A DNA stretch of 19,564 nt from the IMG/VR virus record IMGVR_UViG_2874920711_000010; one strand, written 5' to 3'. Shown here piece after piece: positions 614-17,980 of this stretch (position 1 is the stretch's first letter; every line of letters begins with the position of its first letter). Source of the DNA: a virus (lineage: Duplodnaviria; Heunggongvirae; Uroviricota; Caudoviricetes). The notes beneath the pieces were generated by a model, which was not told the origin of the DNA, did not search any database, and saw nothing but the letters and a program-made list of their open reading frames with translations. A program made the position numbers and the translations under genes.

Positions 614-997
614 TTACCGCCGTAAGTGCTCCGGCTTCCTCCACTGGTAAGTATTTTTCGCGCTCTCCCTCCGTTGTTGAGAACGGCGACGATATGCCAG
701 CAACTCAAGGACTCTTGTTCGTATGTTGCGCATATCCACGCCGTTAAGCTCAATACCGTCACGGCGCATCACCTCAGCCACCACACGCGCGTAATTTTCA
801 GCGGTGACGCTGTCCGGCTGCGTGGCCACCTGTTTGCCTGTTGCCTGACAGATTCCGGTAATACGGAGGATTACTTTCAGTAGTTCGGCGTCGGTCATGG
901 TTATGGTTTCCATAGTGATGGGGAACAATTTCTGTAATCTGCGAAGCTGGCGATCGGTCAGACTCAAATGCCTGGCAACTTCAGTCTGAGTAGCCAC
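614..997 (-). CDS. HTH-domain DNA-binding protein, 127 aa; possible terminase-small-subunit-like or packaging-redirection-like protein
   Basis: ORF with apparent GTG start preceded by GAGGTG; N-terminus EVARHLSLTDRQLRRL looks like a helix-turn-helix. Function not recognised with certainty. Confidence 0.4.
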   Translation of the reverse strand: MATQTEVARHLSLTDRQLRRLQKLFPITMETITMTDAELLKVILRITGICQATGKQVATQPDSVTAENYARVVAEVMRRDGIELNGVDMRNIRTRVLELLAYRRRSQQRRESAKNTYQWRKPEHLRR

Positions 998-1252: not shown

Positions 1253-1283
1253 AAAAAAAAGCCGGATTTCTCCGGCCTTTTCT
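1253..1283 (-). terminator. Intrinsic terminator closing the capsid operon
   Basis: A8 run (1253-1260), hairpin GCCGGATTTCTCCGGC (1261-1276), then T-rich; on the minus strand this is a hairpin followed by a U-run, directly after the stop codon at 1283-1285. Confidence 0.7.
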
Positions 1284-1696
1284 CAGATGGTTTTCAGTAT
1301 GCGATCGATTTCGCCGTCATCACCCTGATATCTGCCATCGTATGCCATGCCAGGGCTTACGGCCTGCGGGCTGTGCATGTCCATAAAGTTTTCAAAGGCT
1401 GCGGTAAGCTCCGGCGCAACCTTCGGGCGTTCCTGCTCTATGGTCATGTTCAGGATTTCCCGGGCATTATCGACGCTAATACATGGCACGTTTGCCATTG
1501 CACGTAACAGCGGCTGATAGTCGTCAGATTCATGAAGCGCCATAATCGCATCAGTGCGCGGCTTGTCCTGCTCTTCCAGTTTGTTAAGTTGATATATAGC
1601 CTCGTAGGTTGATAAACCTCTGTCCGCCATTGCCCGCGCTTCGGCTTTAAATTTACTCGCCAGCGGTAGCGCCATGATAGCTTCATTGATTGCCAT
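1283..1696 (-). CDS. Hypothetical protein, about 138 aa, last gene of the capsid operon
   Basis: ORF 1283-1759 trimmed to the Met at 1696 (MAINEAIMAL...), overlapping the upstream gene end by 14 nt and followed by the terminator. No family recognised. Confidence 0.45.
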   Translation of the reverse strand: MAINEAIMALPLASKFKAEARAMADRGLSTYEAIYQLNKLEEQDKPRTDAIMALHESDDYQPLLRAMANVPCISVDNAREILNMTIEQERPKVAPELTAAFENFMDMHSPQAVSPGMAYDGRYQGDDGEIDRILKTI

Positions 1697-2042
1697 CGTT
1701 CCCCTGCTTATCGCACCAGTGGCTGAACGGATACGCCAGAACCCGCAAAAGCGGCGCATTTTTTCGCGTCGGTGTCGACGCTCTCGGCCAGTTAACGGCG
1801 GCGATATTAAATATCCCCGTCTTGTAACACTGTGCTGATTTCTGCTTTGACGTGTCCACGGGGTACGCCGTCAGATAAACAGCCTTGCCAGATTCCTGAC
1901 CATCCCACGCCTTAAACTCGCCATTGTCCGCCAGCATCAGCGGGGTAAATTCCTGAATAACGCCAGCATCAGCGGAAAAATGTACCAGCGTCGTGGCAAC
2001 CTGCTGTGTGCCTGCATATAACTCAACATATGGAGTGCCCAT
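1683..2042 (-). CDS. Head decoration protein, lambda gpD-like, 119 aa
   Basis: Shares TPLML, AWDG, YKxGxF and VxWP motifs with lambda gpD; strong RBS GGGAGA 5 nt upstream of the ATG, immediately after the capsid gene stop. Confidence 0.6.
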   Translation of the reverse strand: MGTPYVELYAGTQQVATTLVHFSADAGVIQEFTPLMLADNGEFKAWDGQESGKAVYLTAYPVDTSKQKSAQCYKTGIFNIAAVNWPRASTPTRKNAPLLRVLAYPFSHWCDKQGNDGNQ

Positions 2043-2053
2043 AGAATCTCCCG

Positions 2054-3109
2054 TTAACCAATTTTCACAGTAACAAATTTGCGGATATCTGCCGGAACCG
2101 GCTGCGGTGCGCTGTGCGTCTGCACGTACTCAATCGCCGGATCGCCGCTCTCAATCCAGTTTTTCGGGTAGTACATGTTTTGCGTTGCGCCCGTTCTTAC
2201 CGCTTCCGGATCCATAATCGCGCCATAGGCCACCAGACCTTTATTGCTGGTGTTGCCCAGGACAAGCAAATCAGGCTCAAGGAAATATTTTTCGGTGCCG
2301 TCGCTGTCGGTGTATTTGCCGGAATAGACGATAAGGGCCAGATCACCCAGATAGCCTTTAAAGCTCACCACTTCGCCCAGGTTTTTACACGCCAGCTCTG
2401 CGGCGGATTCTGAACCACGGGAAAGATCGTACAGCTCGCGGAATTTTTTAAAGCTACGTAAGGTGCGCCATACGTCAGCGCCCATAATCATGACGTTGGC
2501 GGGGCAGCTGGCCTGTTCGGCGTATAGCTCGATGTCATCTGTCGGATCATGCGTCTCTTTATTCTGCTCAGACCATTTTTTTCCTGGCCCCTGATGGACA
2601 ATGCAGTTTGCCGGCATATTCCAGTCGATTTCATAGCGTTCTATGCCTTCGCCTTCAATGATGTTTTTTCCGGTCGTGACCGCATTCACTGCCAGCCATT
2701 CCACACGCGCTTTAATGGCGTTTATCTGGCGGCGCATGTTGCCAGTAATGAGGCGCATACGTCGCCAGGTGGGGTCGTTAAGCAGTGCCGGATCTTCTCC
2801 AGCCATGCGCATGATGGTTTTTGATGGATCGATTTCGTGTTTGGGTTTCATGTAGCCAGGGCGGATAGTGCTTGTTTCGTACCCTTTATCACGCTGAACC
2901 TGGCTACCCACCACAGGCGAACAAAACGCCGACATGGTGACTTCTTCAATGTCCAGGGTATCCAGCATGACATCTTGTGTGTTGAAGGTTGCTACTTTCG
3001 GGAAAAACAGCGTGGTAAACAGCGGACTGAATTTAAATTCCGGGATATCCCCGCGATTCAGGTACGCGAAAAGCTGGTTAGTGTTAAGTGCCGTTGCTTT
3101 GTCTGCCAT
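2054..3109 (-). CDS. Major capsid protein, lambda gpE family, 351 aa
   Basis: Collinear similarity to lambda gpE over the full length: FKFxPLFxxLFF, PGYxKPKHE, DPTDDIE, VYSGxY...LVLGNT, YPKNWxxxGDPA. Start overlaps the upstream stop as TAATG. Confidence 0.85.
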   Translation of the reverse strand: MADKATALNTNQLFAYLNRGDIPEFKFSPLFTTLFFPKVATFNTQDVMLDTLDIEEVTMSAFCSPVVGSQVQRDKGYETSTIRPGYMKPKHEIDPSKTIMRMAGEDPALLNDPTWRRMRLITGNMRRQINAIKARVEWLAVNAVTTGKNIIEGEGIERYEIDWNMPANCIVHQGPGKKWSEQNKETHDPTDDIELYAEQASCPANVMIMGADVWRTLRSFKKFRELYDLSRGSESAAELACKNLGEVVSFKGYLGDLALIVYSGKYTDSDGTEKYFLEPDLLVLGNTSNKGLVAYGAIMDPEAVRTGATQNMYYPKNWIESGDPAIEYVQTHSAPQPVPADIRKFVTVKIG

Positions 3110-3315
3110 TATTCACCCCCATGAGTCTGATTCATGCCAAGCGCCGCACGTAAATAGGCGCGTACCTGCCAGCCTGTTGACGGCTCAACCATCGCCAGCG
3201 GATCAAGTCCTGCCGCAATGCCCGCTTTTACGTTCTGCTGGTGGCGTTCCTTGAGCGCCTCCACGATATCGGGGCTTATGTAAACTGTCACCCCGCCTTT
3301 TTTCTCTTCTGTCAT
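3109..3315 (-). CDS. Small protein, 68 aa, first gene of the capsid operon, translationally coupled to the capsid gene
   Basis: ORF with a GAGG-type RBS, directly downstream of the promoter and palindrome; stop overlaps the capsid gene start. No family recognised. Confidence 0.5.
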   Translation of the reverse strand: MTEEKKGGVTVYISPDIVEALKERHQQNVKAGIAAGLDPLAMVEPSTGWQVRAYLRAALGMNQTHGGE

Positions 3316-3339
3316 AGTCAGAAATTCCTCTTCGACTTA

Positions 3340-3400
3340 AAAAATTATAACTGGATGTACATCCAGTTATAGTTATAATCATAGTTGCATTTTGTGCAAT
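3340..3400 (-). promoter_or_regulatory. Capsid operon promoter (-35 TTGCAC at 3394-3399, 16-bp spacer, -10 TATAAC at 3372-3377) with a perfect 24-bp palindrome ATAACTGGATGTACATCCAGTTAT (3347-3370) over the start-site region
   Basis: Sigma70-like hexamers on the minus strand with correct spacing; the palindrome has a CTG-N10-CAG core, which is LexA-box-like. Confidence 0.5.
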
Positions 3401-3476
3401 AGAATTGAGTTGCGTTGCAAATTATGAAATGATTTACGGCAACAGTAGTCACCATGCTGTTAACCTCGTAAGCAAA

Positions 3477-3516
3477 AGCCCGATAAGCTTCCTCCTGTAC
3501 TTATCGGGCTTTTTTT
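3477..3516 (+). terminator. Intrinsic terminator-like hairpin with a T6 run on the plus strand and no annotated plus-strand gene upstream
   Basis: Stem AGCCCGATAAG / CTTATCGGGCT with a 13-nt loop, followed by TTTTTT (3511-3516). Confidence 0.45.
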
Positions 3517-3522
3517 GGGTAC

Positions 3523-3547
3523 AAAAAGCCGGATTTTCTCCGGCCTG
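3523..3547 (-). terminator. Intrinsic terminator downstream of the ssb remnant; hairpin nearly identical to the one at 1261-1276
   Basis: AAAAA then GCCGGATTTTCTCCGGC (3528-3544); on the minus strand a hairpin plus U-run directly after the ssb stop at 3553. Confidence 0.6.
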
Positions 3548-3552
3548 TGCGT

Positions 3553-3896
3553 TCAGAACGGAATATCATCACCGTAGGGGTCATCGTCTCCCGCTGGTGG
3601 CTGATTACCCTGTGTGCCTGTGGTTTTGCGTCTGTTCCCGCCAGGGCGTGCCGCTCGGGCACTGATTACGCTGTCGGCAATAACCTGATAACCCTGCCGC
3701 GTTTCCCCGTTCTGTCCGGTCCACTGGCTGACCTGCATCGTGCCGGATACGCTGGCAACGTCGCCTGTCCGTCCTGTGCCTGGCTGCATGGCAGCGATAC
3801 CGCCATACGCGCCAGCGTCATCGGTGTGCCCTTGCTGGTCTGTTTTACCTGCGGGTCGTCCACCAACCGTCCGTAAGCTGCTATCTGTGCTGTCAT
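3553..3896 (-). pseudogene. ssb: Single-stranded DNA-binding protein (SSB) gene remnant, frame-disrupted or internally deleted
   Basis: SSB-like N-terminus (MTAQIAAYGRLVDDPQVKQ...) with RBS GGAGAGG in one frame from 3896; SSB-like OB-fold end (SQWTGQNGETRQGYQVIADSV) and acidic tail DDDPYGDDIPF in another frame ending at 3553. The middle of the OB fold appears missing. Confidence 0.5.
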
Positions 3897-4001
3897 GATT
3901 CCACCTCTCCGGTTTTAACGTAAGCGCCCCATCAGCGACGTCTTGTGAAAATTGTCCTGTCTGGCAACAATCGCGCCCATCTATATTGATGGACACGAAC
4001 G

Positions 4002-4676
4002 ATGAATTCCCAGACAACAAAAGATATTCCCTGCTTCCGTTCTTATTTGCCTGATGCCCTGCGTTTAAGATTTGAAGATAAACTGACCATCCGGGCCATC
4101 GCTCAGCGTCTGGGTCTCAGTCATTCCACAATACATACGCTTTTTCAGCGATTTCTTGCATCCGGTATCGCATGGCCATTGCCCGATTCAGTTTCATTCG
4201 CTCAACTTGACGCCATCCTTTATGCCAACAGAAAGAAGGAATTAACAGAGCCTCAAATCAGAGAAGGCTCATGGCGAAAAGAACGGCGAACCAGCTATAG
4301 CCGTGAATTTAAGGTCCGTCTGGCTAAGCAGGCGTTACAGCCTGGGGCTGTTGTTGCCCGGATCGCCAGAGAACACGATATCAATGATAACCTGCTGTTT
4401 AAATGGAAAAGCCAGTACGAGGACGGCTTACTGAGCGATGATGACATACAGGAATGCATGCCTGTCCCGGTGGCACTGACTGATACGCCGGAGCCGACCA
4501 GACCAGTTACAAATCCCTTCTGGCGTAACAAGCATGATGAGCGCCCTGAGGGGGCTCCCGGAAACGTCCCACGGTGCGAGCTGCATCTTAAATCAGGTGT
4601 GGTAAAACTGTTTGACCCTCTCACTCCGGAACTGTTACGGGCGCTAATCCGCGAAATGAAAGGGGGTATCCGATGA
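4002..4676 (+). CDS. IS66-family accessory protein TnpA (HTH), 224 aa
   Basis: First ORF inside the IS66 left end, overlapping tnpB by 4 nt. Confidence 0.7.
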   Translation: MNSQTTKDIPCFRSYLPDALRLRFEDKLTIRAIAQRLGLSHSTIHTLFQRFLASGIAWPLPDSVSFAQLDAILYANRKKELTEPQIREGSWRKERRTSYSREFKVRLAKQALQPGAVVARIAREHDINDNLLFKWKSQYEDGLLSDDDIQECMPVPVALTDTPEPTRPVTNPFWRNKHDERPEGAPGNVPRCELHLKSGVVKLFDPLTPELLRALIREMKGGIR

Positions 4677-5020
4677 TAACGCTGCCGACCGGTACCAGAA
4701 TCTGGATCATCGCTGGCATCACAGATATGCGTTGTGGCTTCAATGGCCTGGCTTCGAAGGTGCAGAACACGCTGAAAGATGACCCGTTCTCCGGGCATAT
4801 CTTCGTCTTCCGGGGCCGCAGTGGCAAAATGGTGAAAATACTGTGGGCCGATCGTGACGGGTTATGCCTGTTCGCCAAACGCCTGGAACGGGGCCGCTTC
4901 GTCTGGCCGGTGACCCGGGAAGGGAAAGTGCACCTGACGCCAGCTCAGTTATCCATGCTACTGGAGGGGATCGCGTGGCAACATCCCAAACGGACAGAAC
5001 GGCCTGGCATCCGGATATAA
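4673..5020 (+). CDS. IS66-family TnpB (Orf2), 115 aa
   Basis: Characteristic small IS66 second ORF (MITLPTG...IWIIAGITDMRCGFNGL), translationally coupled to tnpA. Confidence 0.85.
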   Translation: MITLPTGTRIWIIAGITDMRCGFNGLASKVQNTLKDDPFSGHIFVFRGRSGKMVKILWADRDGLCLFAKRLERGRFVWPVTREGKVHLTPAQLSMLLEGIAWQHPKRTERPGIRI

Positions 5021-5039
5021 CCCGTGATAAAACAAGGGA

Positions 5040-6595
5040 ATGAACAATGAACTCCCCGATGATATTGAGCTGCTTAAAGCCATGTTGCGTAAGCAACAGA
5101 GTCGGCTTCGACAGTATGCCTGTCAGGTCGCGGGCTATGAGCAGGAAATTGAACGGCTGAAAGCGCAACTCGACAGGTTGCGTCGTATGTTGTTCGGCCA
5201 GAGTTCAGAGAAAAAGCGTCATAAGCTTGAAAATCAGATCCGACAGGCAGAAAAACGACTGTCGGAACTGGAAAACCGGCTGAACACAGCCAGAAATCTT
5301 CTGGAAGATGCATCGTCAGTCACAGATTCACCTGACACCAGTCCCCGTCAGAAAACCCGATCGCCAGTAAGCCTGAATCCCCGGGAGACACATCGCCTTC
5401 TGCCTGCTGAAACCAGTTGCCCGGCCTGTGGAGGTGTTCTGAAAGAAATGGGGGAAACAATCTCAGAGCAACTGGATATCATTAATACCGCCTTTAAAGT
5501 TATCGAAACCATACGTCCCAAACTGGCCTGTAGCCGGTGTGATGTCATCGTTCAGGCACCACTTCCCCTAAACCGATCGAACGCGGTTATGCCAGTGCAG
5601 GGTTACTTGCACGGATCCTGGTCAGCAAATATATGGAACATATCCCTTTATATCGCCAGTCAGAAATATACGCGCGACAGGGCGTGGAGCTGAGCCGTAA
5701 TACCATGGTGCGCTGGGTATCAGAAATGGCAGACAAACTCCGTCCTCTGTATATAGCGCTGAATGACTATGTTCTGGAGGCAGGAAAGGTGCACGCAGAT
5801 GACACTCCGGTGAAAGTACTGGCCCCGGGGAACGGAAAGACGAAAACGGGTCGTCTGTGGGTATACGTCAGGGATGATCGTAATGCGGGTTCATCCCTGC
5901 CGGCAGCCGTCTGGTTCGCGTATTCGGCAGATCGCAAAGGAGAACATCCGCAGCTCCACCTGGCAAAGTATCAGGGCGTACTGCAGGCTGATGCCTATGC
6001 AGGTTATAACGTACTGTACGAAACGGGCCGGGTGAAGGAAGCCGGGTGCCTGGCCCACGCCCGCCGAAAAATCCATGACGAGGATGTGCGCCGTCCGACA
6101 GAAATGACTCAGGAAGCGCTCAGACGGATAGCAGAGTTATACGACATAGAAGCGGAGATACGTGGCAGTCCGGCAGAGGAACGGCTTGCAGTCAGAAAAG
6201 CCAGAAGCGTCCAGTTGATGCAGTCGTTGTACGACTGGATACAGTTGCAGAGGAAAACGCTGTCGAAACATGCGGAGATGGCGAAGGCGTTCGACTATAT
6301 CCTGAATCACTGGAATGCGCTGAACGAGTTCTGTCGTGACGGCTGGGTGGAAATAGACAACAACATCGGTGAAAACGCGTTACGATCGGTGGCGGTTGGA
6401 AGAAAAAATTATCTCTTTTTCGGCTCAGACAAGGGAGGAGAAAGTGCGGCGATCATCTACAGTCTGCTGGTCACCTGCAAACAGAACGAAGTGGAGCCGG
6501 AGGACTGGTTGCGCGAAGTGATCGAGAAGCTCAATGACTGGCCGTCGAACCAAGTGCATGAACTGCTGCCCTGGAACTTCTCGTCTGTAAAATAA
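5040..6595 (+). CDS. IS66-family transposase TnpC, split by an apparent frameshift near 5565-5568 (C4 run)
   Basis: ORFs 5040-5693 and 5633-6595 together make a TnpC of about 517 aa; the conserved [29 protein letters not shown] block is only in frame if one base is restored in the C-run. Confidence 0.75.
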
Positions 6596-6640
6596 TCCTT
6601 ACGCTACGTACTTCTCGGGACGCTTACGTATATTAAGTTA

Positions 6641-6799
6641 GGTAGACAGCTTTTTTTACTGTCTACCCACTATCTACCCTCTCTACCTGATTTTACCTGA
6701 ATCAGACAGGGAGGTAGACACGGGGTAGATAGTGGATAAAAGCACTCTACCCCGCTGAAAGCCGCGCCATTACTGGCATGAGGGCCAGCAAGGTAGACA
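6641..6799. repeat. Iteron cluster: octamer GGTAGACA/TGTCTACC at 6641-6648, 6660-6667, 6713-6720, 6792-6799, plus degenerate copies at 6671-6678 and 6724-6731
   Basis: Exact 8-mers in both orientations within about 160 bp of the 367-bp spacer between the two IS66 copies. Confidence 0.6.
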
Positions 6800-6847
6800 A
6801 GGGGAGGCACAACTCAAAACTTTTTAAACGAGGGGGTAAAAATAAAC

Positions 6848-6994
6848 ATGCACACTTCAGGAAAATTTAATAAATCACTCAAAAAACGCAGAGACAGAAC
6901 AGAACCGAAATATCGCGCGTTAGACATGACAGAGCACGCTTTAAAGGTGGCAATCAGAACGATAGACCGCCACGCGGGGGAAGGATACGCGAAG
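6848..6994 (+). CDS. 5-prime fragment (49 codons) of a small gene truncated at the IS66 copy 2 end
   Basis: ORF 6848-7090 starts after a GAGGGGG RBS; from 6995 onward its frame is IS66 sequence. Confidence 0.25.
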
Positions 6995-7025
6995 GTAAGC
7001 GCCCGAGAAGTACGTAGCGTAAGGA

Positions 7026-8580
7026 TTATTTTACAGACGAGAAGTTCCAGGGCAGCAGTTCATGCACTTGGTTCGACGGCCAGTCATTGAGCTTCTCGAT
7101 CACTTCGCGCAACCAGTCCTCCGGCTCCACTTCGTTCTGTTTGCAGGTGACCAGCAGACTGTAGATGATCGCCGCACTTTCTCCTCCCTTGTCTGAGCCG
7201 AAAAAGAGATAATTTTTTCTTCCAACCGCCACCGATCGTAACGCGTTTTCACCGATGTTGTTGTCTATTTCCACCCAGCCGTCACGACAGAACTCGTTCA
7301 GCGCATTCCAGTGATTCAGGATATAGTCGAACGCCTTCGCCATCTCCGCATGTTTCGACAGCGTTTTCCTCTGCAACTGTATCCAGTCGTACAACGACTG
7401 CATCAACTGGACGCTTCTGGCTTTTCTGACTGCAAGCCGTTCCTCTGCCGGACTGCCACGTATCTCCGCTTCTATGTCGTATAACTCTGCTATCCGTCTG
7501 AGCGCTTCCTGAGTCATTTCTGTCGGACGGCGCACATCCTCGTCATGGATTTTTCGGCGGGCGTGGGCCAGGCACCCGGCTTCCTTCACCCGGCCCGTTT
7601 CGTACAGTACGTTATAACCTGCATAGGCATCAGCCTGCAGTACGCCCTGATACTTTGCCAGGTGGAGCTGCGGATGTTCTCCTTTGCGATCTGCCGAATA
7701 CGCGAACCAGACGGCTGCCGGCAGGGATGAACCCGCATTACGATCATCCCTGACGTATACCCACAGACGACCCGTTTTCGTCTTTCCGTTCCCGGGGCCA
7801 GTACTTTCACCGGAGTGTCATCTGCGTGCACCTTTCCTGCCTCCAGAACATAGTCATTCAGCGCTATATACAGAGGACGGAGTTTGTCTGCCATTTCTGA
7901 TACCCAGCGCACCATGGTATTACGGCTCAGCTCCACGCCCTGTCGCGCGTATATTTCTGACTGGCGATATAAAGGGATATGTTCCATATATTTGCTGACC
8001 AGGATCCGTGCAAGTAACCCTGCACTGGCATAACCGCGTTCGATCGGTTTAGGGGAAGTGGTGCCTGAACGATGACATCACACCGGCTACAGGCCAGTTT
8101 GGGACGTATGGTTTCGATAACTTTAAAGGCGGTATTAATGATATCCAGTTGCTCTGAGATTGTTTCCCCCATTTCTTTCAGAACACCTCCACAGGCCGGG
8201 CAACTGGTTTCAGCAGGCAGAAGGCGATGTGTCTCCCGGGGATTCAGGCTTACTGGCGATCGGGTTTTCTGACGGGGACTGGTGTCAGGTGAATCTGTGA
8301 CTGACGATGCATCTTCCAGAAGATTTCTGGCTGTGTTCAGCCGGTTTTCCAGTTCCGACAGTCGTTTTTCTGCCTGTCGGATCTGATTTTCAAGCTTATG
8401 ACGCTTTTTCTCTGAACTCTGGCCGAACAACATACGACGCAACCTGTCGAGTTGCGCTTTCAGCCGTTCAATTTCCTGCTCATAGCCCGCGACCTGACAG
8501 GCATACTGTCGAAGCCGACTCTGTTGCTTACGCAACATGGCTTTAAGCAGCTCAATATCATCGGGGAGTTCATTGTTCAT
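7026..8580 (-). pseudogene. IS66-family transposase TnpC, copy 2, with the shared frameshift plus a second 1-bp deletion (7801-7803)
   Basis: Three ORF pieces (7927-8580, 7586-7987, 7026-7589); copy 2 reads GGCCCCGGG where copy 1 reads GGCCCCGGGG. Confidence 0.7.
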
Positions 8581-8599
8581 TCCCTTGTTTTATCACGGG

Positions 8600-8947
8600 T
8601 TATATCCGGATGCCAGGCCGTTCTGTCCGTTTGGGATGTTGCCACGCGATCCCCTCCAGTAGCATGGATAACTGAGCTGGCGTCAGGTGCACTTTCCCTT
8701 CCCGGGTCACCGGCCAGACGAAGCGGCCCCGTTCCAGGCGTTTGGCGAACAGGCATAACCCGTCACGATCGGCCCACAGTATTTTCACCATTTTGCCACT
8801 GCGGCCCCGGAAGACGAAGATATGCCCGGAGAACGGGTCATCTTTCAGCGTGTTCTGCACCTTCGAAGCCAGGCCATTGAAGCCACAACGCATATCTGTG
8901 ATGCCAGCGATGATCCAGATTCTGGTACCGGTCGGCAGCGTTATCAT
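8600..8947 (-). CDS. IS66-family TnpB, copy 2
   Basis: Protein identical to 4673-5020. Confidence 0.85.
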   Translation of the reverse strand: MITLPTGTRIWIIAGITDMRCGFNGLASKVQNTLKDDPFSGHIFVFRGRSGKMVKILWADRDGLCLFAKRLERGRFVWPVTREGKVHLTPAQLSMLLEGIAWQHPKRTERPGIRI

Positions 8948-9618
8948 CGGATACCCCCTTTCATTTCGCGGATTAGCGCCCGTAACAGTTCCGGAGTGAG
9001 AGGGTCAAACAGTTTTACCACACCTGATTTAAGATGCAGCTCGCACCGTGGGACGTTTCCGGGAGCCCCCTCAGGGCGCTCATCATGCTTGTTACGCCAG
9101 AAGGGATTTGTAACTGGTCTGGTCGGCTCCGGCGTATCAGTCAGTGCCACCGGGACAGGCATGCATTCCTGTATGTCATCATCGCTCAGTAAGCCGTCCT
9201 CGTACTGGCTTTTCCATTTAAACAGCAGGTTATCATTGATATCGTGTTCTCTGGCGATCCGGGCAACAACAGCCCCAGGCTGTAACGCCTGCTTAGCCAG
9301 ACGGACCTTAAATTCACGGCTATAGCTGGTTCGCCGTTCTTTTCGCCATGAGCCTTCTCTGATTTGAGGCTCTGTTAATTCCTTCTTTCTGTTGGCATAA
9401 AGGATGGCGTCAAGTTGAGCGAATGAAACTGAATCGGGCAATGGCCATGCGATACCGGATGCAAGAAATCGCTGAAAAAGCGTATGTATTGTGGAATGAC
9501 TGAGACCCAGACGCTGAGCGATGGCCCGGATGGTCAGTTTATCTTCAAATCTTAAACGCAGGGCATCAGGCAAATAAGAACGGAAGCAGGGAATATCTTT
9601 TGTTGTCTGGGAATTCAT
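8944..9618 (-). CDS. IS66-family TnpA, copy 2
   Basis: Protein identical to 4002-4676. Confidence 0.7.
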   Translation of the reverse strand: MNSQTTKDIPCFRSYLPDALRLRFEDKLTIRAIAQRLGLSHSTIHTLFQRFLASGIAWPLPDSVSFAQLDAILYANRKKELTEPQIREGSWRKERRTSYSREFKVRLAKQALQPGAVVARIAREHDINDNLLFKWKSQYEDGLLSDDDIQECMPVPVALTDTPEPTRPVTNPFWRNKHDERPEGAPGNVPRCELHLKSGVVKLFDPLTPELLRALIREMKGGIR

Positions 9619-9766: not shown

Positions 9767-10999
9767 TTATAAAAACGCGTCGCACTCGTCTGTTGTTATT
9801 GCGTTAGTCTGCGTTACCCCCTTAACTTTCCGCGTAATATATTCATGTCCGTAAACTTTTGCGGCAGGCTTCATAGCCTTGCCAAAGTCATTTACGTTTA
9901 GCGGTTTGCTCCTGCCTGCGTATGCCATAAACGCCAGATAGACGCGGTAAAGGCTGTTCCTGGTCGTGTACTTCACTGAATCACCACCGCCACCCATCAT
10001 CAGGCCGCGCGCTTCCTCCAGAAAATTCAGGAACTGGCAAAACTCAATAACCGGATCCGTCTGTTGCTTTATTGCCAGTGCTTCATCACCGTCACGCTGT
10101 TCCAGTAGTAAAGCCCGTGCCTTCTCAGGGTCGGTAAAGTTCGCCAGCAATCGGCGGATAATAACGGGGATTTCAGCCGCAATCTTTTCCGGTAGCTCCC
10201 TGTCTTTTTCGGCCTCACTGACGATATTGTCGAAACGGAAAATCACGCGACGACGTGCCACACCTCCGGCCCGTTCGGTGAATATCATCGGGTTGTTGTC
10301 GGTCGCCAGCACCACCGCCCTGATTACCGCCGTGAAACGCTTTTCATATTTCGGGTTAATTTCCACGGGGTCGCCGCCCGTGATTTTCTTGATGCCCGTT
10401 CCTTCGCCTGTATATTTCGGCTGGTCAGCCAGGACGATAAGACGACTCCCGACAACCTGCGCACGTCCACCAGCATCATCAAGCGATGTCATTTCAGCGC
10501 TTACCGTGTTCTGTTTCCCTGCCAGAAGGCTGGCTATGTGTGTGAATGTACTTTTACCGCTCCCGCCGTCTCCGGTGGCCTCAATAAACATCTGCCAGTC
10601 GTACCGGTTCGCCATAATCATGTAAAGCGCGGCACATATGCGCATCATCTTGCGCGGGTCTTTTCCGGCTGCGTGATCAAGCCATTTATGAAAGTTTGGC
10701 GCGTTGTCGCGGATATTCTCCCCTGGTGCTGGTGGCGTGTACTCAATGCCGTTGTGCGTGGTGATCCAGTTCTCCGGCGTGTGCGGGGAAAATTCCCCCG
10801 TTTTCAGGTTAAGCACACCATTAGTGAACGGTAGCAAATCACTGGACGGCTCGCCCATCGGGTCAGCAGTAACTTTTAACGCTTCAACGGCGTTATTAAT
10901 TGCCCGCTTGCTGAATGTGGCCCGTGTTCTGAATAAACCGCCACCATTTCGCGGCTCAGTTCCATTGTGCTGACCGGACACCATATCCCGCCGCGCCAT
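9767..10999 (-). CDS. Replicase/helicase of the P4 alpha C-terminal type (D5_N-like region plus P-loop NTPase), up to 410 aa
   Basis: LPFTNGVLNLKTGEF motif and Walker A ATGDGGSGKST; true start may be the internal Met at 10858 (after the upstream stop) or the gene may be fused to 10876-11520 by a frameshift. Confidence 0.8.
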   Translation of the reverse strand: MARRDMVSGQHNGTEPRNGGGLFRTRATFSKRAINNAVEALKVTADPMGEPSSDLLPFTNGVLNLKTGEFSPHTPENWITTHNGIEYTPPAPGENIRDNAPNFHKWLDHAAGKDPRKMMRICAALYMIMANRYDWQMFIEATGDGGSGKSTFTHIASLLAGKQNTVSAEMTSLDDAGGRAQVVGSRLIVLADQPKYTGEGTGIKKITGGDPVEINPKYEKRFTAVIRAVVLATDNNPMIFTERAGGVARRRVIFRFDNIVSEAEKDRELPEKIAAEIPVIIRRLLANFTDPEKARALLLEQRDGDEALAIKQQTDPVIEFCQFLNFLEEARGLMMGGGGDSVKYTTRNSLYRVYLAFMAYAGRSKPLNVNDFGKAMKPAAKVYGHEYITRKVKGVTQTNAITTDECDAFL

Positions 11000-11520
11000 A
11001 CGTGAACGATTTCACTTTCCGGATGCACACAAACGCCATCAAATCGACCAGCAAGCATCTGTGCGCGCTCACTGTCTGCCATCTGCGAAAGTTGCGCCTT
11101 TTGCTTTACCGGAAGCTCAATGACCAGACCATCAGAAAGATTCTGGCGTTCACGGGCCAGATATTCGCGCCAGTTCTGCACCTCCTGGCCGTGCATACCC
11201 TCAAGATAAAAATTTGCATCTTGTACACCTGCCGCCGCCAGCTTCTGACCAATCGCCTTGATCATTACAGGCTCAAGATGTCCGGCTCTGTATATGCGTG
11301 CTGATTTTCTGCCATCCGGCACAATTTGCAGATTATCCAGTTCGGATAGCTGCTGCTCTCCAAGCCACACAGGAGGCTCATTATCTCCGGCTGTACGCGC
11401 GTCATGTTCCTGCCACTGTTTCGCGTGTGCCCAGGCATCACTACCCGCAAAGATAATTACCTCTGTGTCTTTGTGTTTTATTCCGCGTGGCTGTTTTTTT
11501 ACGTTCGGTGCCAGTTTCAT
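10876..11520 (-). CDS. Primase-like or replication-associated protein, 214 aa, upstream partner of the replicase
   Basis: ORF overlaps the replicase ORF by 124 nt in another frame; domain not recognised with certainty. Confidence 0.5.
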   Translation of the reverse strand: MKLAPNVKKQPRGIKHKDTEVIIFAGSDAWAHAKQWQEHDARTAGDNEPPVWLGEQQLSELDNLQIVPDGRKSARIYRAGHLEPVMIKAIGQKLAAAGVQDANFYLEGMHGQEVQNWREYLARERQNLSDGLVIELPVKQKAQLSQMADSERAQMLAGRFDGVCVHPESEIVHVWRGGIWCPVSTMELSREMVAVYSEHGPHSASGQLITPLKR

Positions 11521-11801
11521 TTTTTACCCCTGAATACGTTAAGCATCTTTTTTATTTCCTGAATATTGGCACGTGCTTTCTCCCTGCTGGTGGGCACGTT
11601 ACGCGGTACGGCCTGCACAAGAGAAAAATCACGGTCGAACTGATAAACAGGCATCACGCAATCATATTCGTAGCCTTCACGACGGTAGGTTACGCGCCGT
11701 TCCTCCACGCCCTTAATTATTACCGTGCTGCCGTACTTATCGCGGTAAATATTGAGGTAGCCTGAGTTTAACGGACACTCCTTCCTGAAATAGAATGGCA
11801 T
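11517..11801 (-). CDS. Small hypothetical protein coupled to the primase gene (ATGA overlap); its first codons lie inside the IS3-family element
   Basis: Stop overlaps the primase start at 11517-11520; the annotated start at 11801 is beyond the inferred IS left end (about 11763-11779), so the native N-terminus and promoter are probably lost. Confidence 0.35.
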   Translation of the reverse strand: MPFYFRKECPLNSGYLNIYRDKYGSTVIIKGVEERRVTYRREGYEYDCVMPVYQFDRDFSLVQAVPRNVPTSREKARANIQEIKKMLNVFRGKK

Positions 11802-11816
11802 CAGAAGGAGCTAATA

Positions 11817-12079
11817 ATGAGCAGAAAAACCCAACGTTACTCTAAAGAGTTCAAAGCCGAAGCTGTCAGAACGGTTCTTGAAAATCAACTTTCGATCAGT
11901 GAAGGCGCTTCCCGATTATCCCTTCCTGAAGGCACTTTAGGACAATGGGTTACCGCCGCCAGAAAAGGACTCGGTACTCCTGGTTCCCGCACGGTGGCTG
12001 AACTGGAATCTGAAATTCTGCAACTGCGTAAGGCGTTAAATGAAGCTCGCCTTGAGCGAGATATATTAAAAAAAGCAAC
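11817..12079 (+). CDS. IS3-family OrfA (HTH), interrupted near its 3-prime end by IS30; the last codons resume at 13302
   Basis: Removing IS30 and one AC copy restores ...DILKKATAYFAQESLKNTR and a continuous -1 frame into OrfB. Confidence 0.7.
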
Positions 12080-13299
12080 TGTAGATTCAATTGGTCAACG
12101 CAACAGTTATGTGAAAACATGGGGTTGCGGAGGTTTTTTGAATGAGACGAACATTTACAGCAGAGGAAAAAGCCTCTGTTTTTGAACTATGGAAGAACGG
12201 AACAGGCTTCAGTGAAATAGCGAATATCCTGGGTTCAAAACCCGGAACGATCTTCACTATGTTAAGGGATACTGGCGGCATAAAACCCCATGAGCGTAAG
12301 CGGGCTGTAGCTCACCTGACACTGTCTGAGCGCGAGGAGATACGAGCTGGTTTGTCAGCCAAAATGAGCATTCGTGCGATAGCTACTGCGCTGAATCGCA
12401 GTCCTTCGACGATCTCACGTGAAGTTCAGCGTAATCGGGCAGACGCTATTACAAAGCTGTTGATGCTAATAACCGAGCCAACAGAATGGCGAAAAGGCCA
12501 AAACCGTGCTTACTGGATCAAAATTTACCATTGCGAAAGCTTGTTCTGGAAAAGCTGGAGATGAAATGGTCTCCAGAGCAAATATCAGGATGGTTAAGGC
12601 GAACAAAACCACGTCAAAAAACGCTGCGAATATCACCTGAGACAATTTATAAAACGCTGTACTTTCGTAGCCGTGAAGCGCTACACCACCTGAATATACA
12701 GCATCTGCGACGGTCGCATAGCCTTCGCCATGGCAGGCGTCATACCCGCAAAGGCGAAAGAGGTACGATTAACATAGTGAACGGAACACCAATTCACGAA
12801 CGTTCCCGAAATATCGATAACAGACGCTCTCTGGGGCATTGGGAGGGCGATTTAGTCTCAGGTACAAAAAACTCTCATATAGCCACACTTGTAGACCGAA
12901 AATCACGTTATACGATCATCCTTAGACTCAGGGGCAAAGATTCTGTCTCAGTAAATCAGGCTCTTACCGACAAATTCCTGAGTTTACCGTCAGAACTCAG
13001 AAAATCACTGACATGGGACAGAGGAATGGAACTGGCCAGACATCTAGAATTTACTGTCAGCACCGGCGTTAAAGTTTACTTCTGCGATCCTCAGAGTCCT
13101 TGGCAGCGGGGAACAAATGAGAACACAAATGGGCTAATTCGGCAGTACTTTCCTAAAAAGACATGTCTTGCCCAATATACTCAACATGAACTAGATCTGG
13201 TTGCTGCTCAGCTAAACAACAGACCGAGAAAGACACTGAAGTTCAAAACACCGAAAGAGATAATTGAAAGGGGTGTTGCATTGACAGATTGAATCTACA
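12080..13299 (+). mobile_element. IS30 (1220 bp here, canonical 1221 bp) nested inside the IS3-family element, with 2-bp target duplication AC
   Basis: Left end TGTAGATTCAATTGGTCAACGCAACAG at 12080, right end ...CAGATTGAATCTACA at 13299, AC at 12078-12079 and 13300-13301. Confidence 0.85.
12142..13292 (+). CDS. insI: IS30 transposase, split by a 1-bp deletion in a G-run at about 12436-12439
   Basis: ORFs 12142-12564 and 12486-13292 together give the roughly 383-aa IS30 transposase; the window reads CGGGCAGACGC where an intact frame requires one more G. Confidence 0.8.
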
Positions 13300-13376
13300 A
13301 CAGCGTATTTTGCACAGGAGTCGCTGAAAAATACGCGTTAATCGAACAATGGCGACAACAATTTCCCATTGAAGCG

Positions 13377-14195
13377 ATGTGTCAGGTATTTGGTGTATCC
13401 AGGAGCGGTTATTACAACTGGGTACAGCATGAACCCTCAGACAGAAAACAAAGTGATGAGCGGCTAAAACTGGAGATTAAGGTGGCCCATATCCGCACTC
13501 GCGAAACATATGGAACCCGGCGGCTCCAGACGGAGCTGGCAGAGAATGGCATCATCGTTGGACGTGACCGACTGGCACGTCTTCGTAAGGAGCTAAGGCT
13601 ACGCTGTAAGCAGAAACGCAAGTTCAGAGCGACTACGAACCCGAACCACAATCTGCCAGTTGCGCCAAATCTGCTGAACCAGACGTTCGCTCCTACAGCA
13701 CCAAATCAGGTCTGGGTGGCGGACCTGACGTATGTTGCCACACAGGAGGGATGGTTGTACCTCGCTGGCATCAAAGATGTTTATACGTGCGAAATTGTCG
13801 GCTACGCCATGGGAGAGCGCATGACAAAAGAGCTGACAGGTAAAGCCCTGTTTATGGCGCTCAGGAGCCAGCGCCCACCTGCCGGGCTAATCCACCACTC
13901 TGATCGAGGTTCACAGTACTGCGCATACGATTACCGGGTCATACAGGAGCAGTTTGGTCTGAAAACATCAATGTCGCGTAAAGGTAACAGTTACGACAAC
14001 GCTCCGATGGAAAGCTTCTGGGGAACGCTGAAAAATGAGAGCCTGAGCCACTATCGTTTTAATAACCGGGATGAAGCCATCTCAGTAATACGGGAATACA
14101 TTGAGATTTTCTACAATCGTCAGCGTCGTCACTCTCGTCTGGGGAATATCTCCCCGGCAGCCTTCAGGGAAAAATATCATCAGATGGCTGCTTAA
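13377..14195 (+). CDS. IS3-family OrfB (DDE transposase catalytic domain)
   Basis: DDE-type motifs (WVADLTY, HHSDRGSQY, YDNAPMESFW); in the intact element it is expressed as an OrfAB fusion by -1 frameshifting, the -1 frame being open from about 13302. Confidence 0.8.
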   Translation: MCQVFGVSRSGYYNWVQHEPSDRKQSDERLKLEIKVAHIRTRETYGTRRLQTELAENGIIVGRDRLARLRKELRLRCKQKRKFRATTNPNHNLPVAPNLLNQTFAPTAPNQVWVADLTYVATQEGWLYLAGIKDVYTCEIVGYAMGERMTKELTGKALFMALRSQRPPAGLIHHSDRGSQYCAYDYRVIQEQFGLKTSMSRKGNSYDNAPMESFWGTLKNESLSHYRFNNRDEAISVIREYIEIFYNRQRRHSRLGNISPAAFREKYHQMAA

Positions 14196-14549: not shown

Positions 14550-16010
14550 CGTTACTTTATTCGTACCCCTTATAATGGGGTGTTAGCCAGCCAGACCCGG
14601 CATGATTACTGCCCCCAGTCGTCCATGATCCGGGGGTGATGTCACCGGGTCTGGTGGGGCGCTGGTAACCGCTAATAGGGTCAGGTCAGGCACTTTTGCC
14701 GGGACCGTCTGTAACGTGGATGCCGGTACCTGCTCCCGTGGTTATCTGGTTAACCCATATACAAGGGAGACAGAATGACCGAATCCAGCGATTACGAATC
14801 CGTCCAGGTCTTTATCGGCGTTGATGTCGGTAAAGATACGCATCACGCTGTTGCCATTAATCGTTCAGGTAAACGCCTGTTCGATAAAGCATTACCCAAC
14901 GACGAAAACAAACTCAGGTCGCTAATATCTGACCTGAAACAACATGGTCAGATACTGCTGGTTGTTGATCAGCCAGCTACCATCGGTGCGTTACCTGTCG
15001 CCGTTGCCCGCTCAGAAGGAGTCCTTGTCGGATATCTCCCTGGACTGGCCATGCACCGCATAGCCGACTTACACGCCGGTGAAGCTAAAACTGATGCTCG
15101 TGACGCTGCCATCATTGCCGAAGCTGCCCGTACCCTGCCTCACGCGCTACGCACGCTGAAACTGGCTGACGAGCAAATCGCCGAACTCTCCATGCTCTGC
15201 GGCTTCGATGATGATCTTGCCGCACAGACAACGCAGGCCAGCAACCGTATCCGCGGCCTTCTGACCCAGATACATCCGGCACTGGAGCGCGTTCTCGGTC
15301 CGAGACTTGAGCACCCGGCGGTACTCGATCTTCTCCAGCGATATCCCTCACCAGAAAAACTCGCTTCGCTGGGTGAGAAGAAGCTGGCAGCCCAGCTCTG
15401 CAAACTTGCGCCTCGTCTGGGTAAACGCCTTGCAGCAGACATAGCTCAGGCACTGGCCGAACAAACCGTCGTCGTTCCCGGCACGAATGCCGCTGCCGTA
15501 GTACTGCCACGTCTGGCACTCCAACTCATCACGCTGCGTAAGCAAAGAGACGAGGTGGCGCTTGAGGTAGAACAGCGAGTTCTTGCTCACCCTCTTTACC
15601 CGGTCCTGACCAGTATGCCCGGAGTCGGTGTCAGGACCGCAGCCAGACTCCTCACCGAGGTCGCCTGCCGCGCCTTCGCCTCTGCCGCACATCTCGCTGC
15701 TTATGCTGGCCTTGCGCCGGTAACTCGGCGATCCGGCTCGTCAATACGCGGTGAGCATCCCTCGCGACGGGGTAATAAAGCTCTCAAACGGGCGTTGTTC
15801 CTGTCGGCCTTCGCCGCGCTCAGGGATCCGCTCTCCAGGGCTTACTACACCCGCAAAATGAGTCAGGGAAAACGACACAATCAGGCGCTTATCGCCCTGG
15901 CGAGACGACGCTGCGACGTTCTGTTCGCCATGATGCGCGACGGGACTTTTTATACCCCGCAGGGGTCATAACATGCTTGACAACTTAATAGGGCACCCCC
16001 ATTTTCACAA
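14550..16010 (+). mobile_element. IS110-family insertion sequence (boundaries approximate)
   Basis: Single 398-aa transposase with a GC-rich leader of about 220 bp; sharp base-composition change near 14545. Confidence 0.6.
14775..15971 (+). CDS. IS110-family transposase, 398 aa
   Basis: N-terminal FIGVDVGKDTHHAV RuvC-like motif; RBS AAGGGAGA upstream. Confidence 0.85.
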   Translation: MTESSDYESVQVFIGVDVGKDTHHAVAINRSGKRLFDKALPNDENKLRSLISDLKQHGQILLVVDQPATIGALPVAVARSEGVLVGYLPGLAMHRIADLHAGEAKTDARDAAIIAEAARTLPHALRTLKLADEQIAELSMLCGFDDDLAAQTTQASNRIRGLLTQIHPALERVLGPRLEHPAVLDLLQRYPSPEKLASLGEKKLAAQLCKLAPRLGKRLAADIAQALAEQTVVVPGTNAAAVVLPRLALQLITLRKQRDEVALEVEQRVLAHPLYPVLTSMPGVGVRTAARLLTEVACRAFASAAHLAAYAGLAPVTRRSGSSIRGEHPSRRGNKALKRALFLSAFAALRDPLSRAYYTRKMSQGKRHNQALIALARRRCDVLFAMMRDGTFYTPQGS

Positions 16011-16366
16011 TCAGCAACAAGAATATTTTTAGCGTCATTCAGCGACCGCGTTGCGATGTATCGGATACATTCCAGGGCGAACAATGTGTATTCTTCCCGT
16101 TCTTCCTTTCGTGCAAGCTCTGCTGTGCATTCAATATCAATAAGCGCGTGCATCAGCGTAGTGAGTGCGGCGGCGGCTGCGTCCGGTGTGGTTTTATTGT
16201 GCATAGGTTTCCCCTGGCGAATACGGGCGACAAAAATCAGATGTGCGTGCGGCAGCTGCGCGCGGGCTTCGCGTTCAGTGGCTGCGGTAACGGTGAATAT
16301 TGCAATGCTGTCTGTCAGGCACTGCATAAAGCGCCAGACAAAGTAAGGGCGTGCGGATACAGCCAT
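15950..16366 (-). CDS. Ash-like protein paralog 1 (about 138 aa); its 3-prime end overlaps the IS110 element
   Basis: Start at 16366 preceded by AAAGGAG with 8-nt spacing; shares VTAxTEREAR...ARIRQG with the paralog at 16584-16841. Ash-family assignment is from memory, not verified. Confidence 0.45.
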   Translation of the reverse strand: MAVSARPYFVWRFMQCLTDSIAIFTVTAATEREARAQLPHAHLIFVARIRQGKPMHNKTTPDAAAAALTTLMHALIDIECTAELARKEEREEYTLFALECIRYIATRSLNDAKNILVADCENGGALLSCQACYDPCGV

Positions 16367-16583
16367 GTGAAAGGCTCCTTTGCTTGATGTAAGGAGTCTC
16401 GCCAGCACGCTGTCAAACATGGTGGCGGGACGTAACAGGGTTGACAGACTGGCAGCAAAGAAACCAGCGAGCGCAAAGGCTCCCCCGTTACGCCCCGCCA
16501 TAATGCGGGTATGGGTAGGTTTACGGACACAAAAAAACCGCATATCGGAATGTAAGCGGCTGTCCGCTTTGCTATTCAGGCTG

Positions 16584-16841
16584 TCAAACCCGGTCGCCAT
16601 GTGGGCGACGGGGAAGAATACAGCCCCACGGTAATTTTTTGCAAGTTGTTTTTACGCATGGCCAACCCCCCTGACGAATACGGGCCGCGAATACAGCAAC
16701 ACAACCGGACGGGCAATGGTTACGCGCTTCGCGTTCAGTCCAGGCGGTGACGTGGATGATTTGGGACTCTGACGCACCAAAGGCGATAAAGCGCCAGAGA
16801 AAGGCGGTTTGAGAATGTACAAGGGTAGGGGTAGTAGCCAT
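16584..16841 (-). CDS. Ash-like protein paralog 2 (about 85 aa)
   Basis: Start at 16841 preceded by AAGGAGG with 8-nt spacing; it is the C-terminal part of a 460-aa ORF whose upstream 375 codons look non-coding. Confidence 0.45.
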   Translation of the reverse strand: MATTPTLVHSQTAFLWRFIAFGASESQIIHVTAWTEREARNHCPSGCVAVFAARIRQGGWPCVKTTCKKLPWGCILPRRPHGDRV

Positions 16842-17006
16842 GCCGGCAGCCTCCTTGATTGATGGAATGTAACCACCGCCGGAGGTCCTAAGCTCGCTGG
16901 CGGTGGACTGTACAGGGTTAGGACTACTGGCAATCAAGGGAACCAGCCTACCCGAAGGTAGCCCCATACAGCCCACCATTGTATAGGTGTGCGTGTGCGT
17001 CGATAC

Positions 17007-17029
17007 AAAAAAAGACGCGTGCGGCGTCT
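17007..17029 (-). terminator. Intrinsic terminator (minus strand)
   Basis: AAAAAAA followed by AGACGC-GTGCG-GCGTCT; on the minus strand a hairpin plus U7. Confidence 0.55.
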
Positions 17030-17289
17030 GTATCGCCTCGATTGTCAGCGGGGTCCTAATCCCGGCACCCGTTTTATAAGGTGCACGCGAATCATAGCCT
17101 TGGCTGGCAGTGGCGATCAACTGGTTTTTCATACCCGCTTTATTCAGGTTGTGCGAGTCCCGCCCTTGCAGGTGTGTGGTATGATTTAACATAGCTATCT
17201 CGATACTGTTGCTATCGTTGGTGGTTAGACGCCCTGCATGTGTTGCGAGCACTGCGGGGCGTTGCTTAATTTGAGTGACAAAACTCAAA

Positions 17290-17322
17290 CTGTGCGCACA
17301 GATTAAAATCATGTGTGCGCAC
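17290..17322. promoter_or_regulatory. Two perfect 10-bp palindromes TGTGCGCACA (17290-17299, 17313-17322) plus a half-site at 17361-17367
   Basis: Read from the sequence, upstream of the small plus-strand gene at 17398; the same GTGCGCAC core occurs at 31-38. Confidence 0.5.
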
Positions 17323-17397
17323 ATGTCAATACTTAACATCTCATTTTTTTTGCTGTATTGTGTGCGCCCATAAAGTCCATTTAAGTGAGGTGCATCA

Positions 17398-17595
17398 ATG
17401 TCTAGCGGTAACACAAACAACAAATCAGCAAAGAAAAATATTCGATTCCCACATGAGCTTATAGATGGGGTTGATGCCAGCGTTGAACAAGAAAAATTAA
17501 CTAATCCTAGTGCTAATTTTTCCGCATGGGTCTTAGATGCCTGTGGACGCAAATTAAAATATGAACAGCGCCGGAAGGCCAAAGAATCAGAATAA
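17398..17595 (+). CDS. Small putative DNA-binding protein, 65 aa (ribbon-helix-helix-like)
   Basis: ORF downstream of the palindromic operator; basic N-terminus followed by IRFPHELIDGVDASVEQEKL. Confidence 0.45.
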   Translation: MSSGNTNNKSAKKNIRFPHELIDGVDASVEQEKLTNPSANFSAWVLDACGRKLKYEQRRKAKESE

Positions 17596-17652
17596 TCACT
17601 ATCAGCGCCGTGGCGTGAGGTGCTACGGCGCATTGCTTTACAGGTACACACA

Positions 17653-17832
17653 ATGACCAACAAAGAATCAACCAATACACCATCGCAAAAAACGAACAGA
17701 GAGCACGAAAATATGGCGCTCGAGCATGAATCAGAAAGATTCGCACCATGTGCTTTTGCCCTTGAGCAATTCCTTAAAGAGTACAGGGAAACGCGCTCAT
17801 TGCAGGTATGGCAACGAACTGAACCAGACTGA
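17653..17832 (+). CDS. Small hypothetical protein, 59 aa
   Basis: ORF 17620-17832 trimmed to the ATG at 17653; followed by the bidirectional terminator. Confidence 0.3.
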   Translation: MTNKESTNTPSQKTNREHENMALEHESERFAPCAFALEQFLKEYRETRSLQVWQRTEPD

Positions 17833-17924
17833 TTGCATTGCCCACCAGCCTGATAGCGTCTATCATCCCCGTGCTTATGTTTGGGATCACATACACATAA
17901 GGCGCAGCGGGTTAATTGTTCAGA

Positions 17925-17954
17925 AAGGCGGCTCCATATCGGGGCCGCTTTTTT
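17925..17954. terminator. Bidirectional intrinsic terminator between the convergent small genes and alpA
   Basis: GGCGGCTCC-ATATC-GGGGCCGC followed by TTTTTT on the plus strand, A/T-rich on the other side. Confidence 0.55.
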
Positions 17955-17980
17955 CGTGTTTGTCATATCTGTGATACCCG

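Follow-up and report, generated by a model that had tools for sequence, protein, structure and literature searches.

The window, the 19,564-nt stretch of viral DNA analysed here, is, judging from its gene content, a phage-inducible chromosomal island (PICI) of the EcCICFT073 type that has been riddled by insertion sequences. It carries the features by which a PICI is recognized, namely an integrase gene, an alpA-like regulator gene, a primase/replication module, and capsid and decoration genes resembling c1499 and c1500. The region is ~90% identical to islands in hundreds of E. coli chromosomes, and the annotation of these related islands lists an integrase, an HTH regulator, Icd-like, DUF4222, primase, SSB, PerC and hypothetical proteins, a major capsid protein, and a head decoration protein. 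The genes of the window referred to below are as follows.

614-997, minus strand: 127-aa ORF with an N-terminal HTH-like segment, occupying the position of CFT073 Rpp
1283-1696, minus strand: scaffold-like ORF, likely start ATG at 1696 (phrog_1999, 2.8e-59)
1683-2042, minus strand: head decoration protein, lambda gpD family
2054-3109, minus strand: major capsid protein, lambda gpE family
3109-3315, minus strand: first gene of the capsid operon, a weakly RHH-like 68-aa protein (phrog_3255, unknown function, 1.1e-36)
3555-3553, minus strand: stop codon of ssb, the upstream neighbor of a terminator pair
9767-11801: primase and DUF4222
17981-18187: AlpA-like gene
18662 onwards: int

This copy of the island is degraded, but its capsid operon and the region upstream of it have stayed intact. 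The ssb gene is a pseudogene (3553-3921), in which residues 1-47 of the CFT073 homologue match in one frame and residues 67-121 in another, with no match to residues 48-66. Two IS66-family copies lie in inverted orientation within 4002-9618, and because the segment between them (6628-6993) is inverted relative to the intact island, the arrangement is an IS-mediated inversion. Further insertions of the IS3 family (11817-14195) and the IS110 family (14775-15971) split the island. In CFT073-type islands a PerC-family gene is found between ssb and the capsid promoter; perC is absent from the window (3474-3552, compared with 10571-10819 in the island of E. coli 181.1, locus L001), while the terminators and the promoter region are still present. 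In the Icd-like/Ash-like region, two matches to C4 antisense RNA (74.8 and 78.6 bits) and one to isrK (64 bits) were found on the minus strand at 16418-16505, 16896-16983, and 17008-17084, and owing to these RNA matches the long ORFs called at 15950-16600 and 16584-17966 are probably partly spurious.

CFT073 Rpp matches PDB 6hlk (5e-31). A CFT073-type Rpp was not found in the window, and the 127-aa ORF at its position is dissimilar both to CFT073 Rpp and to PDB 6hlk; it may represent a different packaging-redirection allele. Downstream of this ORF, near the island end, lies a 22-bp perfect palindrome (545-566, CGAGTTGCAGATCTGCAACTCG) that includes a GTTGCA motif, as found in the capsid promoter region. 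This palindrome could be a cos/packaging site or the site of a regulator.

The first-pass annotation, made from the letters of the DNA, had named the operon at 1283-3315 as encoding capsid genes, and this identification is borne out by matches of the major capsid protein to Pfam Phage_cap_E (1.5e-48) and of the decoration protein to Pfam HDPD (2.6e-13). The capsid region shows ~90% nucleotide identity to the EcCICFT073-type PICI of E. coli 181.1. The 68-aa protein encoded by the first gene reaches Pfam RHH_1 at an E value of only 0.21, with weak RHH/BrnA matches, and a single-sequence AlphaFold2 model gives a beta-alpha-alpha fold at low confidence (pLDDT 61). PDB sequence searches returned nothing significant for the profile of this small protein or for the 127-aa ORF. 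The ORF at 1283-1696 matches the head-maturation protease profile phrog_53 (8.8e-10) at positions 449-566 of 583 only, and this C-terminal part of the profile is the counterpart of a Nu3-like scaffold. Hence the island may specify a shell, a decoration protein, and a scaffold, but neither a protease nor a portal.

The following features were located in the leader of the capsid operon and, in one case, at the integrase gene.

3325-3332, minus strand: Shine-Dalgarno region of the first gene, within a conserved AAGAGGAA block
3339-3344, minus strand: run of six T, two nt past the palindrome and flagged together with it as terminator-like
3346-3371, no strand assigned: 26-bp perfect palindrome TATAACTGGATGTACATCCAGTTATA, with 13-bp arms
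3349-3368, no strand assigned: predicted LexA operator, 20-mer SOS box AACTGGATGTACATCCAGTT with core CTG-N10-CAG
3372-3377, minus strand: predicted -10 hexamer TATAAC (TATAAT in nearly every relative)
3384-3400, no strand assigned: inverted repeat ATTGCA-N5-TGCAA(C/T), spanning the -35 and the spacer
3394-3399, minus strand: predicted -35 hexamer TTGCAC, with a 16-nt spacer
3474-3544, minus strand: two canonical intrinsic terminators (3544-3523 and 3510-3474) ending the upstream ssb unit
18644-18663, minus strand: second LexA-like box AGCTGTACAGAAAACCAGTA, overlapping the integrase stop codon (17.4 bits)

Because two terminators end the ssb unit just upstream, the capsid operon would need a promoter of its own. 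The same terminator pair is present in CFT073. The predicted promoter is placed by a -35 hexamer inferred from consensus and conservation and by a -10 hexamer that lies in a block, GATTATAAT, invariant across an alignment of 53 sequences. It matches consensus at 8 of 12 positions and was not listed by a generic promoter scan of the window. The predicted -35 is weak, and the promoter may require an activator. The palindrome directly adjoins the predicted -10 on the minus strand, the predicted start falls inside its left arm, and the LexA-box 20-mer begins 4 nt past this -10, both promoter and start site being predictions. The palindrome had earlier been described as lying 2 nt downstream of the -10; the adjacency holds, while the exact distance hinges on which of the overlapping hexamers is chosen.

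That description had also given the palindrome as 24 bp in length, at 3347-3370. This 24-mer (ATAACTGGATGTACATCCAGTTAT) exists and is perfect, occurring as a single copy in the window at up to 3 mismatches and in none of 200 shuffles, but the full palindrome is 26 bp long and is the longest in the window according to our own palindrome scan. Arms of 12 bp were reached once in 200 shuffles and arms of 13 bp never. No inverted repeat of 20 bp or more was detected by a repeat search of the window, since each arm of this palindrome is 13 bp, and no Rfam match was found at or near the palindrome at the gathering threshold. The core reads CTGG-N8-CCAG, i.e., CTG-N10-CAG, and differs by one mismatch per half-site from CTGT-N8-ACAG, in agreement with what had been noted previously.

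The 16-mer at 3351-3366, CTGGATGTACATCCAG, has the exact spacing of the gammaproteobacterial SOS-box consensus CTG-N10-CAG stated in PMC2994835 and fits that consensus. For scoring, a symmetric LexA weight matrix was built from 28 E. coli sites from the literature, four of which (recA, ruvAB, and two at lexA) were verified by exact matches in the MG1655 genome in front of the expected genes. The 20-mer AACTGGATGTACATCCAGTT scores 23.7 bits on this matrix, within the top quarter of the leave-one-out scores of the 28 sites. On a matrix built without the four verified MG1655 sites it scores 23.1 bits, compared with 22.1 bits for recA, 18.8 for ruvAB, and 18.6 and 18.5 for lexA, each of these being the best match within its own 4-6 kb MG1655 locus. 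Scoring against a LexA matrix had been named in advance as a check on the SOS-box reading, and the site thus places above four genuine E. coli operators. Its heterology index is ~4.3, as re-derived without use of the published matrix. From the exact score distribution (p ~5e-9 per position), ~9e-5 such sites, or about 1e-4, would be expected per window. No shuffle of the window attained the score of AACTGGATGTACATCCAGTT, and 671 kb of related loci contained only two unrelated sites at 14 bits or above. The closest parallel among the known operators is the E. coli ruvAB box (CTGGATATCTATCCAG), in which both 6-bp arms (CTGGAT/ATCCAG) and their spacing are identical to those of the island site. 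The ruvAB SOS box (CGCTGGATATCTATCCAGCA) departs from the island site in its central four bases and its flanks; the island site outscores it and forms part of a longer perfect palindrome.

Conservation was followed in 80 IMG/VR loci encoding capsid proteins 87-100% identical to that of the window. CTGGAT-N4-ATCCAG, or a variant with ACAG, is kept in 78 of these close relatives; the exceptions are L048, where a 1-nt insertion breaks the spacing, and L065, where a recombinant upstream region lacks the box. Drift falls in the central four bases (GTAC, GAAC, GTTC, AAAC) and in the three bases next to CTG and CAG. In one lineage, CCAG has become ACAG, which brings the site nearer to the LexA consensus and breaks a G-C pair of the stem. 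Locus L003 is identical to the window over the 191-bp promoter stretch and in the capsid protein. The CFT073 island carries the box AACTGGATGAACATCCAGTT after TATAAT, and the island of Nissle 1917 likewise carries a box at the same place. The promoter region is found in 620 of 5426 complete E. coli genomes (~11%), CFT073 and Nissle 1917 included.

The box is also found in more distant islands. In Salmonella islands and in L094 (capsid 67-68% identical) it reads GACTGGATGAAAATCCAGTA. In L097 (66% capsid identity) it reads TGCTGGATGTTTATCCAGTT, with the outer arms absent and the box ~14 nt further from the -10. The Lelliottia island L087 (57% capsid identity) has CACTGTTTTTTCATACAGTT at the same place, scoring 21.4 bits; there, homology to the E. 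coli site can still be seen in the right half and in the flank downstream, the arms have lost their complementarity, and the RNA forms only a weak hairpin (-6.1 kcal/mol, z -1.5). Across these clades, then, CTG, CAG, their spacing, and the A/T-rich spacer are kept, and the stem is not. CTG, CAG, their spacing, and an A/T-rich spacer are the features that LexA reads. The core does not vary among hundreds of island copies or between genera, whereas the adjacent bases are hypervariable. The box is absent from a sister clade (L065, L083-L086), in which a shortened remnant, ACTGACTTTTCGTTATG, is found, as well as from islands without the small ORF (L088-L093) and from the phage-like context of L096. 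Megablast of window positions 2000-4100 gave no match in a GenBank phage collection, and a scan of genome contigs (one genome per species) with a capsid-protein pattern returned pattern matches and no confirmed relative.

The second LexA-like box, at the integrase stop codon, was also located at 12138 in L103 and at 738 in L101 and L102. The Nissle island of E. coli carries an identical copy, and relatives 72-77% identical carry AACTGTACAAAAAACCAGTA, which scores 20.7 bits. This box and the one at the capsid promoter are the two top-scoring matches to the LexA matrix in the 24.5-kb Nissle locus. A conserved TATAAT (TCGTATAAT) is found ~30 nt downstream of the integrase-stop box, ahead of a small ORF and the AlpA-like gene; a box so placed is not at a classical position for occlusion. 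Its presence favors a genuine connection of this island lineage with LexA.

We consider it likely that the palindrome is a LexA operator through which the SOS response controls the capsid module of an EcCICFT073-type PICI. This is the reading proposed in the first-pass annotation, and it is now supported by the matrix score, a chance rate of about 1e-4, conservation across clades, and the position relative to the predicted promoter. We infer from these features that LexA binds at the palindrome and represses there. The palindrome measures 26-32 bp among relatives, exceeding what LexA requires; because it is overlong and its outer arms covary, the LexA reading taken alone appears incomplete.

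A rival reading gives the palindrome a role in RNA only, in which it would act as an intrinsic terminator or attenuator hairpin, or as a 5' stem-loop, insulating the capsid operon against transcription from upstream, and its likeness to a LexA box would be coincidental. A generic scan classes the palindrome and the T6 run together as a terminator-like element, in which ATTTTTT follows a stem of 11 pairs, and the T run is conserved among relatives, those lacking the box included. The hairpin of the window is predicted at -13 kcal/mol (z -3.7) and that of L001 at -17.7 kcal/mol (z -4.8), the latter within a 51-nt stretch identical in CFT073. In relatives the palindrome extends to ~32 bp (AATCATAACTGGATG..CATCCAGTTATGATT). 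Three outer-arm pairs have changed on both sides (UA/GC/CG, AU/GC, and CG/UA), a number reached in 20 of 500 shuffles, and the six such cells observed were reached in none of 500; 94% of cells are paired, compared with 26-42% in slid-partner controls. The covarying pairs lie outside the 16-mer core, and two of the three also lie outside the 20-mer, a pattern that LexA does not account for. The inner arms CTGGAT/ATCCAG, however, never covary, even though their surroundings are rearranged in L097 and in Salmonella, and in L087 CTG and CAG are retained while the hairpin is lost. The lineage with ACAG has likewise given up a G-C pair and gained a better LexA match. The terminator-like stem has an A/U-rich base and only 3 G-C pairs. 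Two strong terminators already stand 100-170 nt upstream of the palindrome, and the operon's own transcript, with its predicted start inside the left arm, would form only a -9 kcal/mol stem lying apart from the U run. Departures to G-U and C-A are about equally frequent, giving no strand bias, and the most variable outer pair is unpaired in 8 of 19 sequence types. Templated quasipalindrome (template-switch) mutation could yield the same arm compensations. Since it is also very improbable that a random hairpin would score 23.7 bits on the LexA matrix, we regard a purely RNA-level role as quite improbable. The outer-arm changes themselves (CAA/TTG, GGA/TCC, GAG/TTC) map to window positions 3346-3350 and 3367-3371 and their flanks (A2 columns 10-13 and 32-35).

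Instead of LexA, a dedicated repressor could use the palindrome as its operator; the candidates are the 68-aa RHH-like protein acting in autoregulation, another island protein, or the repressor of a helper phage. Long perfect palindromes at promoters are typical of dimeric or tetrameric repressors, the symmetry of the outer arms continues past the LexA 20-mer, and the product of the first gene shows a beta-alpha-alpha pattern with its weak RHH/BrnA matches. Operator and protein do not travel together, though: the putative DNA-reading strand of the 68-aa protein, GGVSVYIS, is unchanged in L083, L085, and L086, which lack the palindrome. The divergent box of L087 fits LexA and not a CTGGAT-specific protein, and each locus has the LexA-like motif a single time, without a second operator. 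A match to the operator of a specific phage or satellite repressor had been named beforehand as an outcome that would overturn the SOS-box reading; with one motif per locus and an RHH-like protein conserved without the box, that objection is weakened, and we judge such a repressor improbable, if marginally less so than the RNA-level role. Less probable than either, and in our view very unlikely, is a reading in which the palindrome has no regulatory role, being left over as a non-functional remnant or as a by-product of quasipalindrome mutation. The island in the window is decaying, as its frameshifted ssb and several IS insertions show, and some sister clades lack the box; the core is nevertheless invariant across copies and genera amid its hypervariable neighbors, and the score and position of the box are far from chance. 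The conservation and the score together speak strongly against chance or decay.

Two further candidates were set aside. PerC was ruled out as the cognate regulator, as the palindrome is intact in the window, from which perC is missing. An arrangement of promoter and nearby terminator of the Q-type antitermination kind was dropped, because the hairpin and the -10 overlap and the predicted start falls within the hairpin.

The inverted repeat upstream of the palindrome reads ATTGCA-N5-TGCAAC in the window (3400-3384). TTGCA-like motifs continue up to 3420, and a further TTTGCAAC is found ~21 nt upstream of the repeat. The repeat is kept in all relatives with the small ORF, including L065, L083, L085, and L086, which lack the LexA box, and it is a likely candidate for the site of a second regulator, e.g., an activator or another repressor. 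It persists whether or not a LexA box is present, and it is a better candidate than the palindrome for the site of an island-specific regulator.

If the palindrome is a LexA operator, a LexA dimer at 3349-3368 would, in an undamaged cell, block initiation from TTGCAC-16-TATAAC, covering the DNA from about +1 on. DNA damage would activate RecA, LexA would cleave itself, and the capsid promoter would open. As lambdoid helper prophages are induced by the same SOS signal, the satellite capsid, decoration, and scaffold-like genes would be turned on at the time of helper induction. Capsid expression may further require a factor binding the upstream ATTGCA-N5-TGCAA repeat. A more elaborate version is a two-layer switch, in which the DNA would serve as a LexA operator while, in RNA, the covarying outer arms and the U run would terminate read-through coming from the AlpA-driven early operon; taken with the second box, it would amount to direct sensing of SOS by this lineage of Gram-negative PICIs. 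We hold this version to be doubtful. Were it true, the capsid module would be expressible only from its own SOS-gated promoter, and the switch together with the box at the int/alpA junction would depart from the published mode of induction, which is purely helper-dependent and SOS-independent.

A comparison with known systems places the proposed gate among familiar strategies. The exploitation of LexA by mobile elements is already well known: the coliphage 186 tum gene, the Gifsy antirepressors, and CTXphi PrstA are LexA-repressed genes of mobile elements. The promoter P1 of phage GIL01 is also LexA-repressed (PMC4551915). In each of these, as proposed here, a mobile element borrows the host LexA to make a key promoter responsive to DNA damage. 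The sites in those elements govern lysogeny switches or antirepressors, whereas here the target would be the structural (capsid) module of a satellite.

The nearest functional parallel is operon I of the S. aureus pathogenicity islands (SaPIs), a capsid/packaging module described as LexA-controlled (Ubeda 2007, as cited in passages of PMC6092414 and PMC12409344). In both SaPIs and the present island, the capsid/packaging module of a satellite would stand under the host SOS repressor (a prediction for the island studied here), with the remainder of the element under a separate island regulator and the gated operon downstream of the replication module. The two share no sequence homology. SaPI operon I comprises cpmA/B, pti, and terS behind a Gram-positive (Cheo-type) LexA box, whereas the present operon holds lambda E/D-like capsid and decoration genes and a scaffold-like gene behind a gammaproteobacterial CTG-N10-CAG box. 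The gene content of the present operon is lambda E/D-like and not the cpm, pti, and terS set, and the likeness is one of regulatory logic and not of membership.

EcCICFT073, the prototype Gram-negative PICI, shares with the window the order of int, an alpA-like gene, primase, ssb, the small ORF, and the capsid (c1499) and decoration (c1500) genes. The window copy differs in the missing perC, a different int/alpA arm, the frameshifted ssb, and the several IS insertions. In the published model, induction of EcCICFT073 is AlpA-dependent, helper-induced, and SOS-independent for alpA (PMC6092414, PMC6739421). Its c1499 and c1500 are described as capsid and decoration homologues, and deletion of either did not relieve phage interference (PMC6092414). 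LexA appears in PMC6092414 and PMC6739421 in the reference lists only, and a LexA box at the capsid operon is not described in them. More broadly, in the part of the literature that we covered, no description of a LexA box on c1499 or on the capsid operons of Gram-negative PICIs was found, the citations concerning SaPIs only.

In conclusion, an SOS gate on the capsid operon would be an incremental regulatory finding and not a new principle. If it is true, it would provide a simple account of when the capsid and decoration homologues of EcCICFT073 are expressed, and the satellite would be expected to behave differently after prophage induction, when SOS is on, than after infection by a helper, when SOS is off. 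It would also mean that Gram-negative and Gram-positive PICIs have independently placed a capsid/packaging module under the control of LexA.
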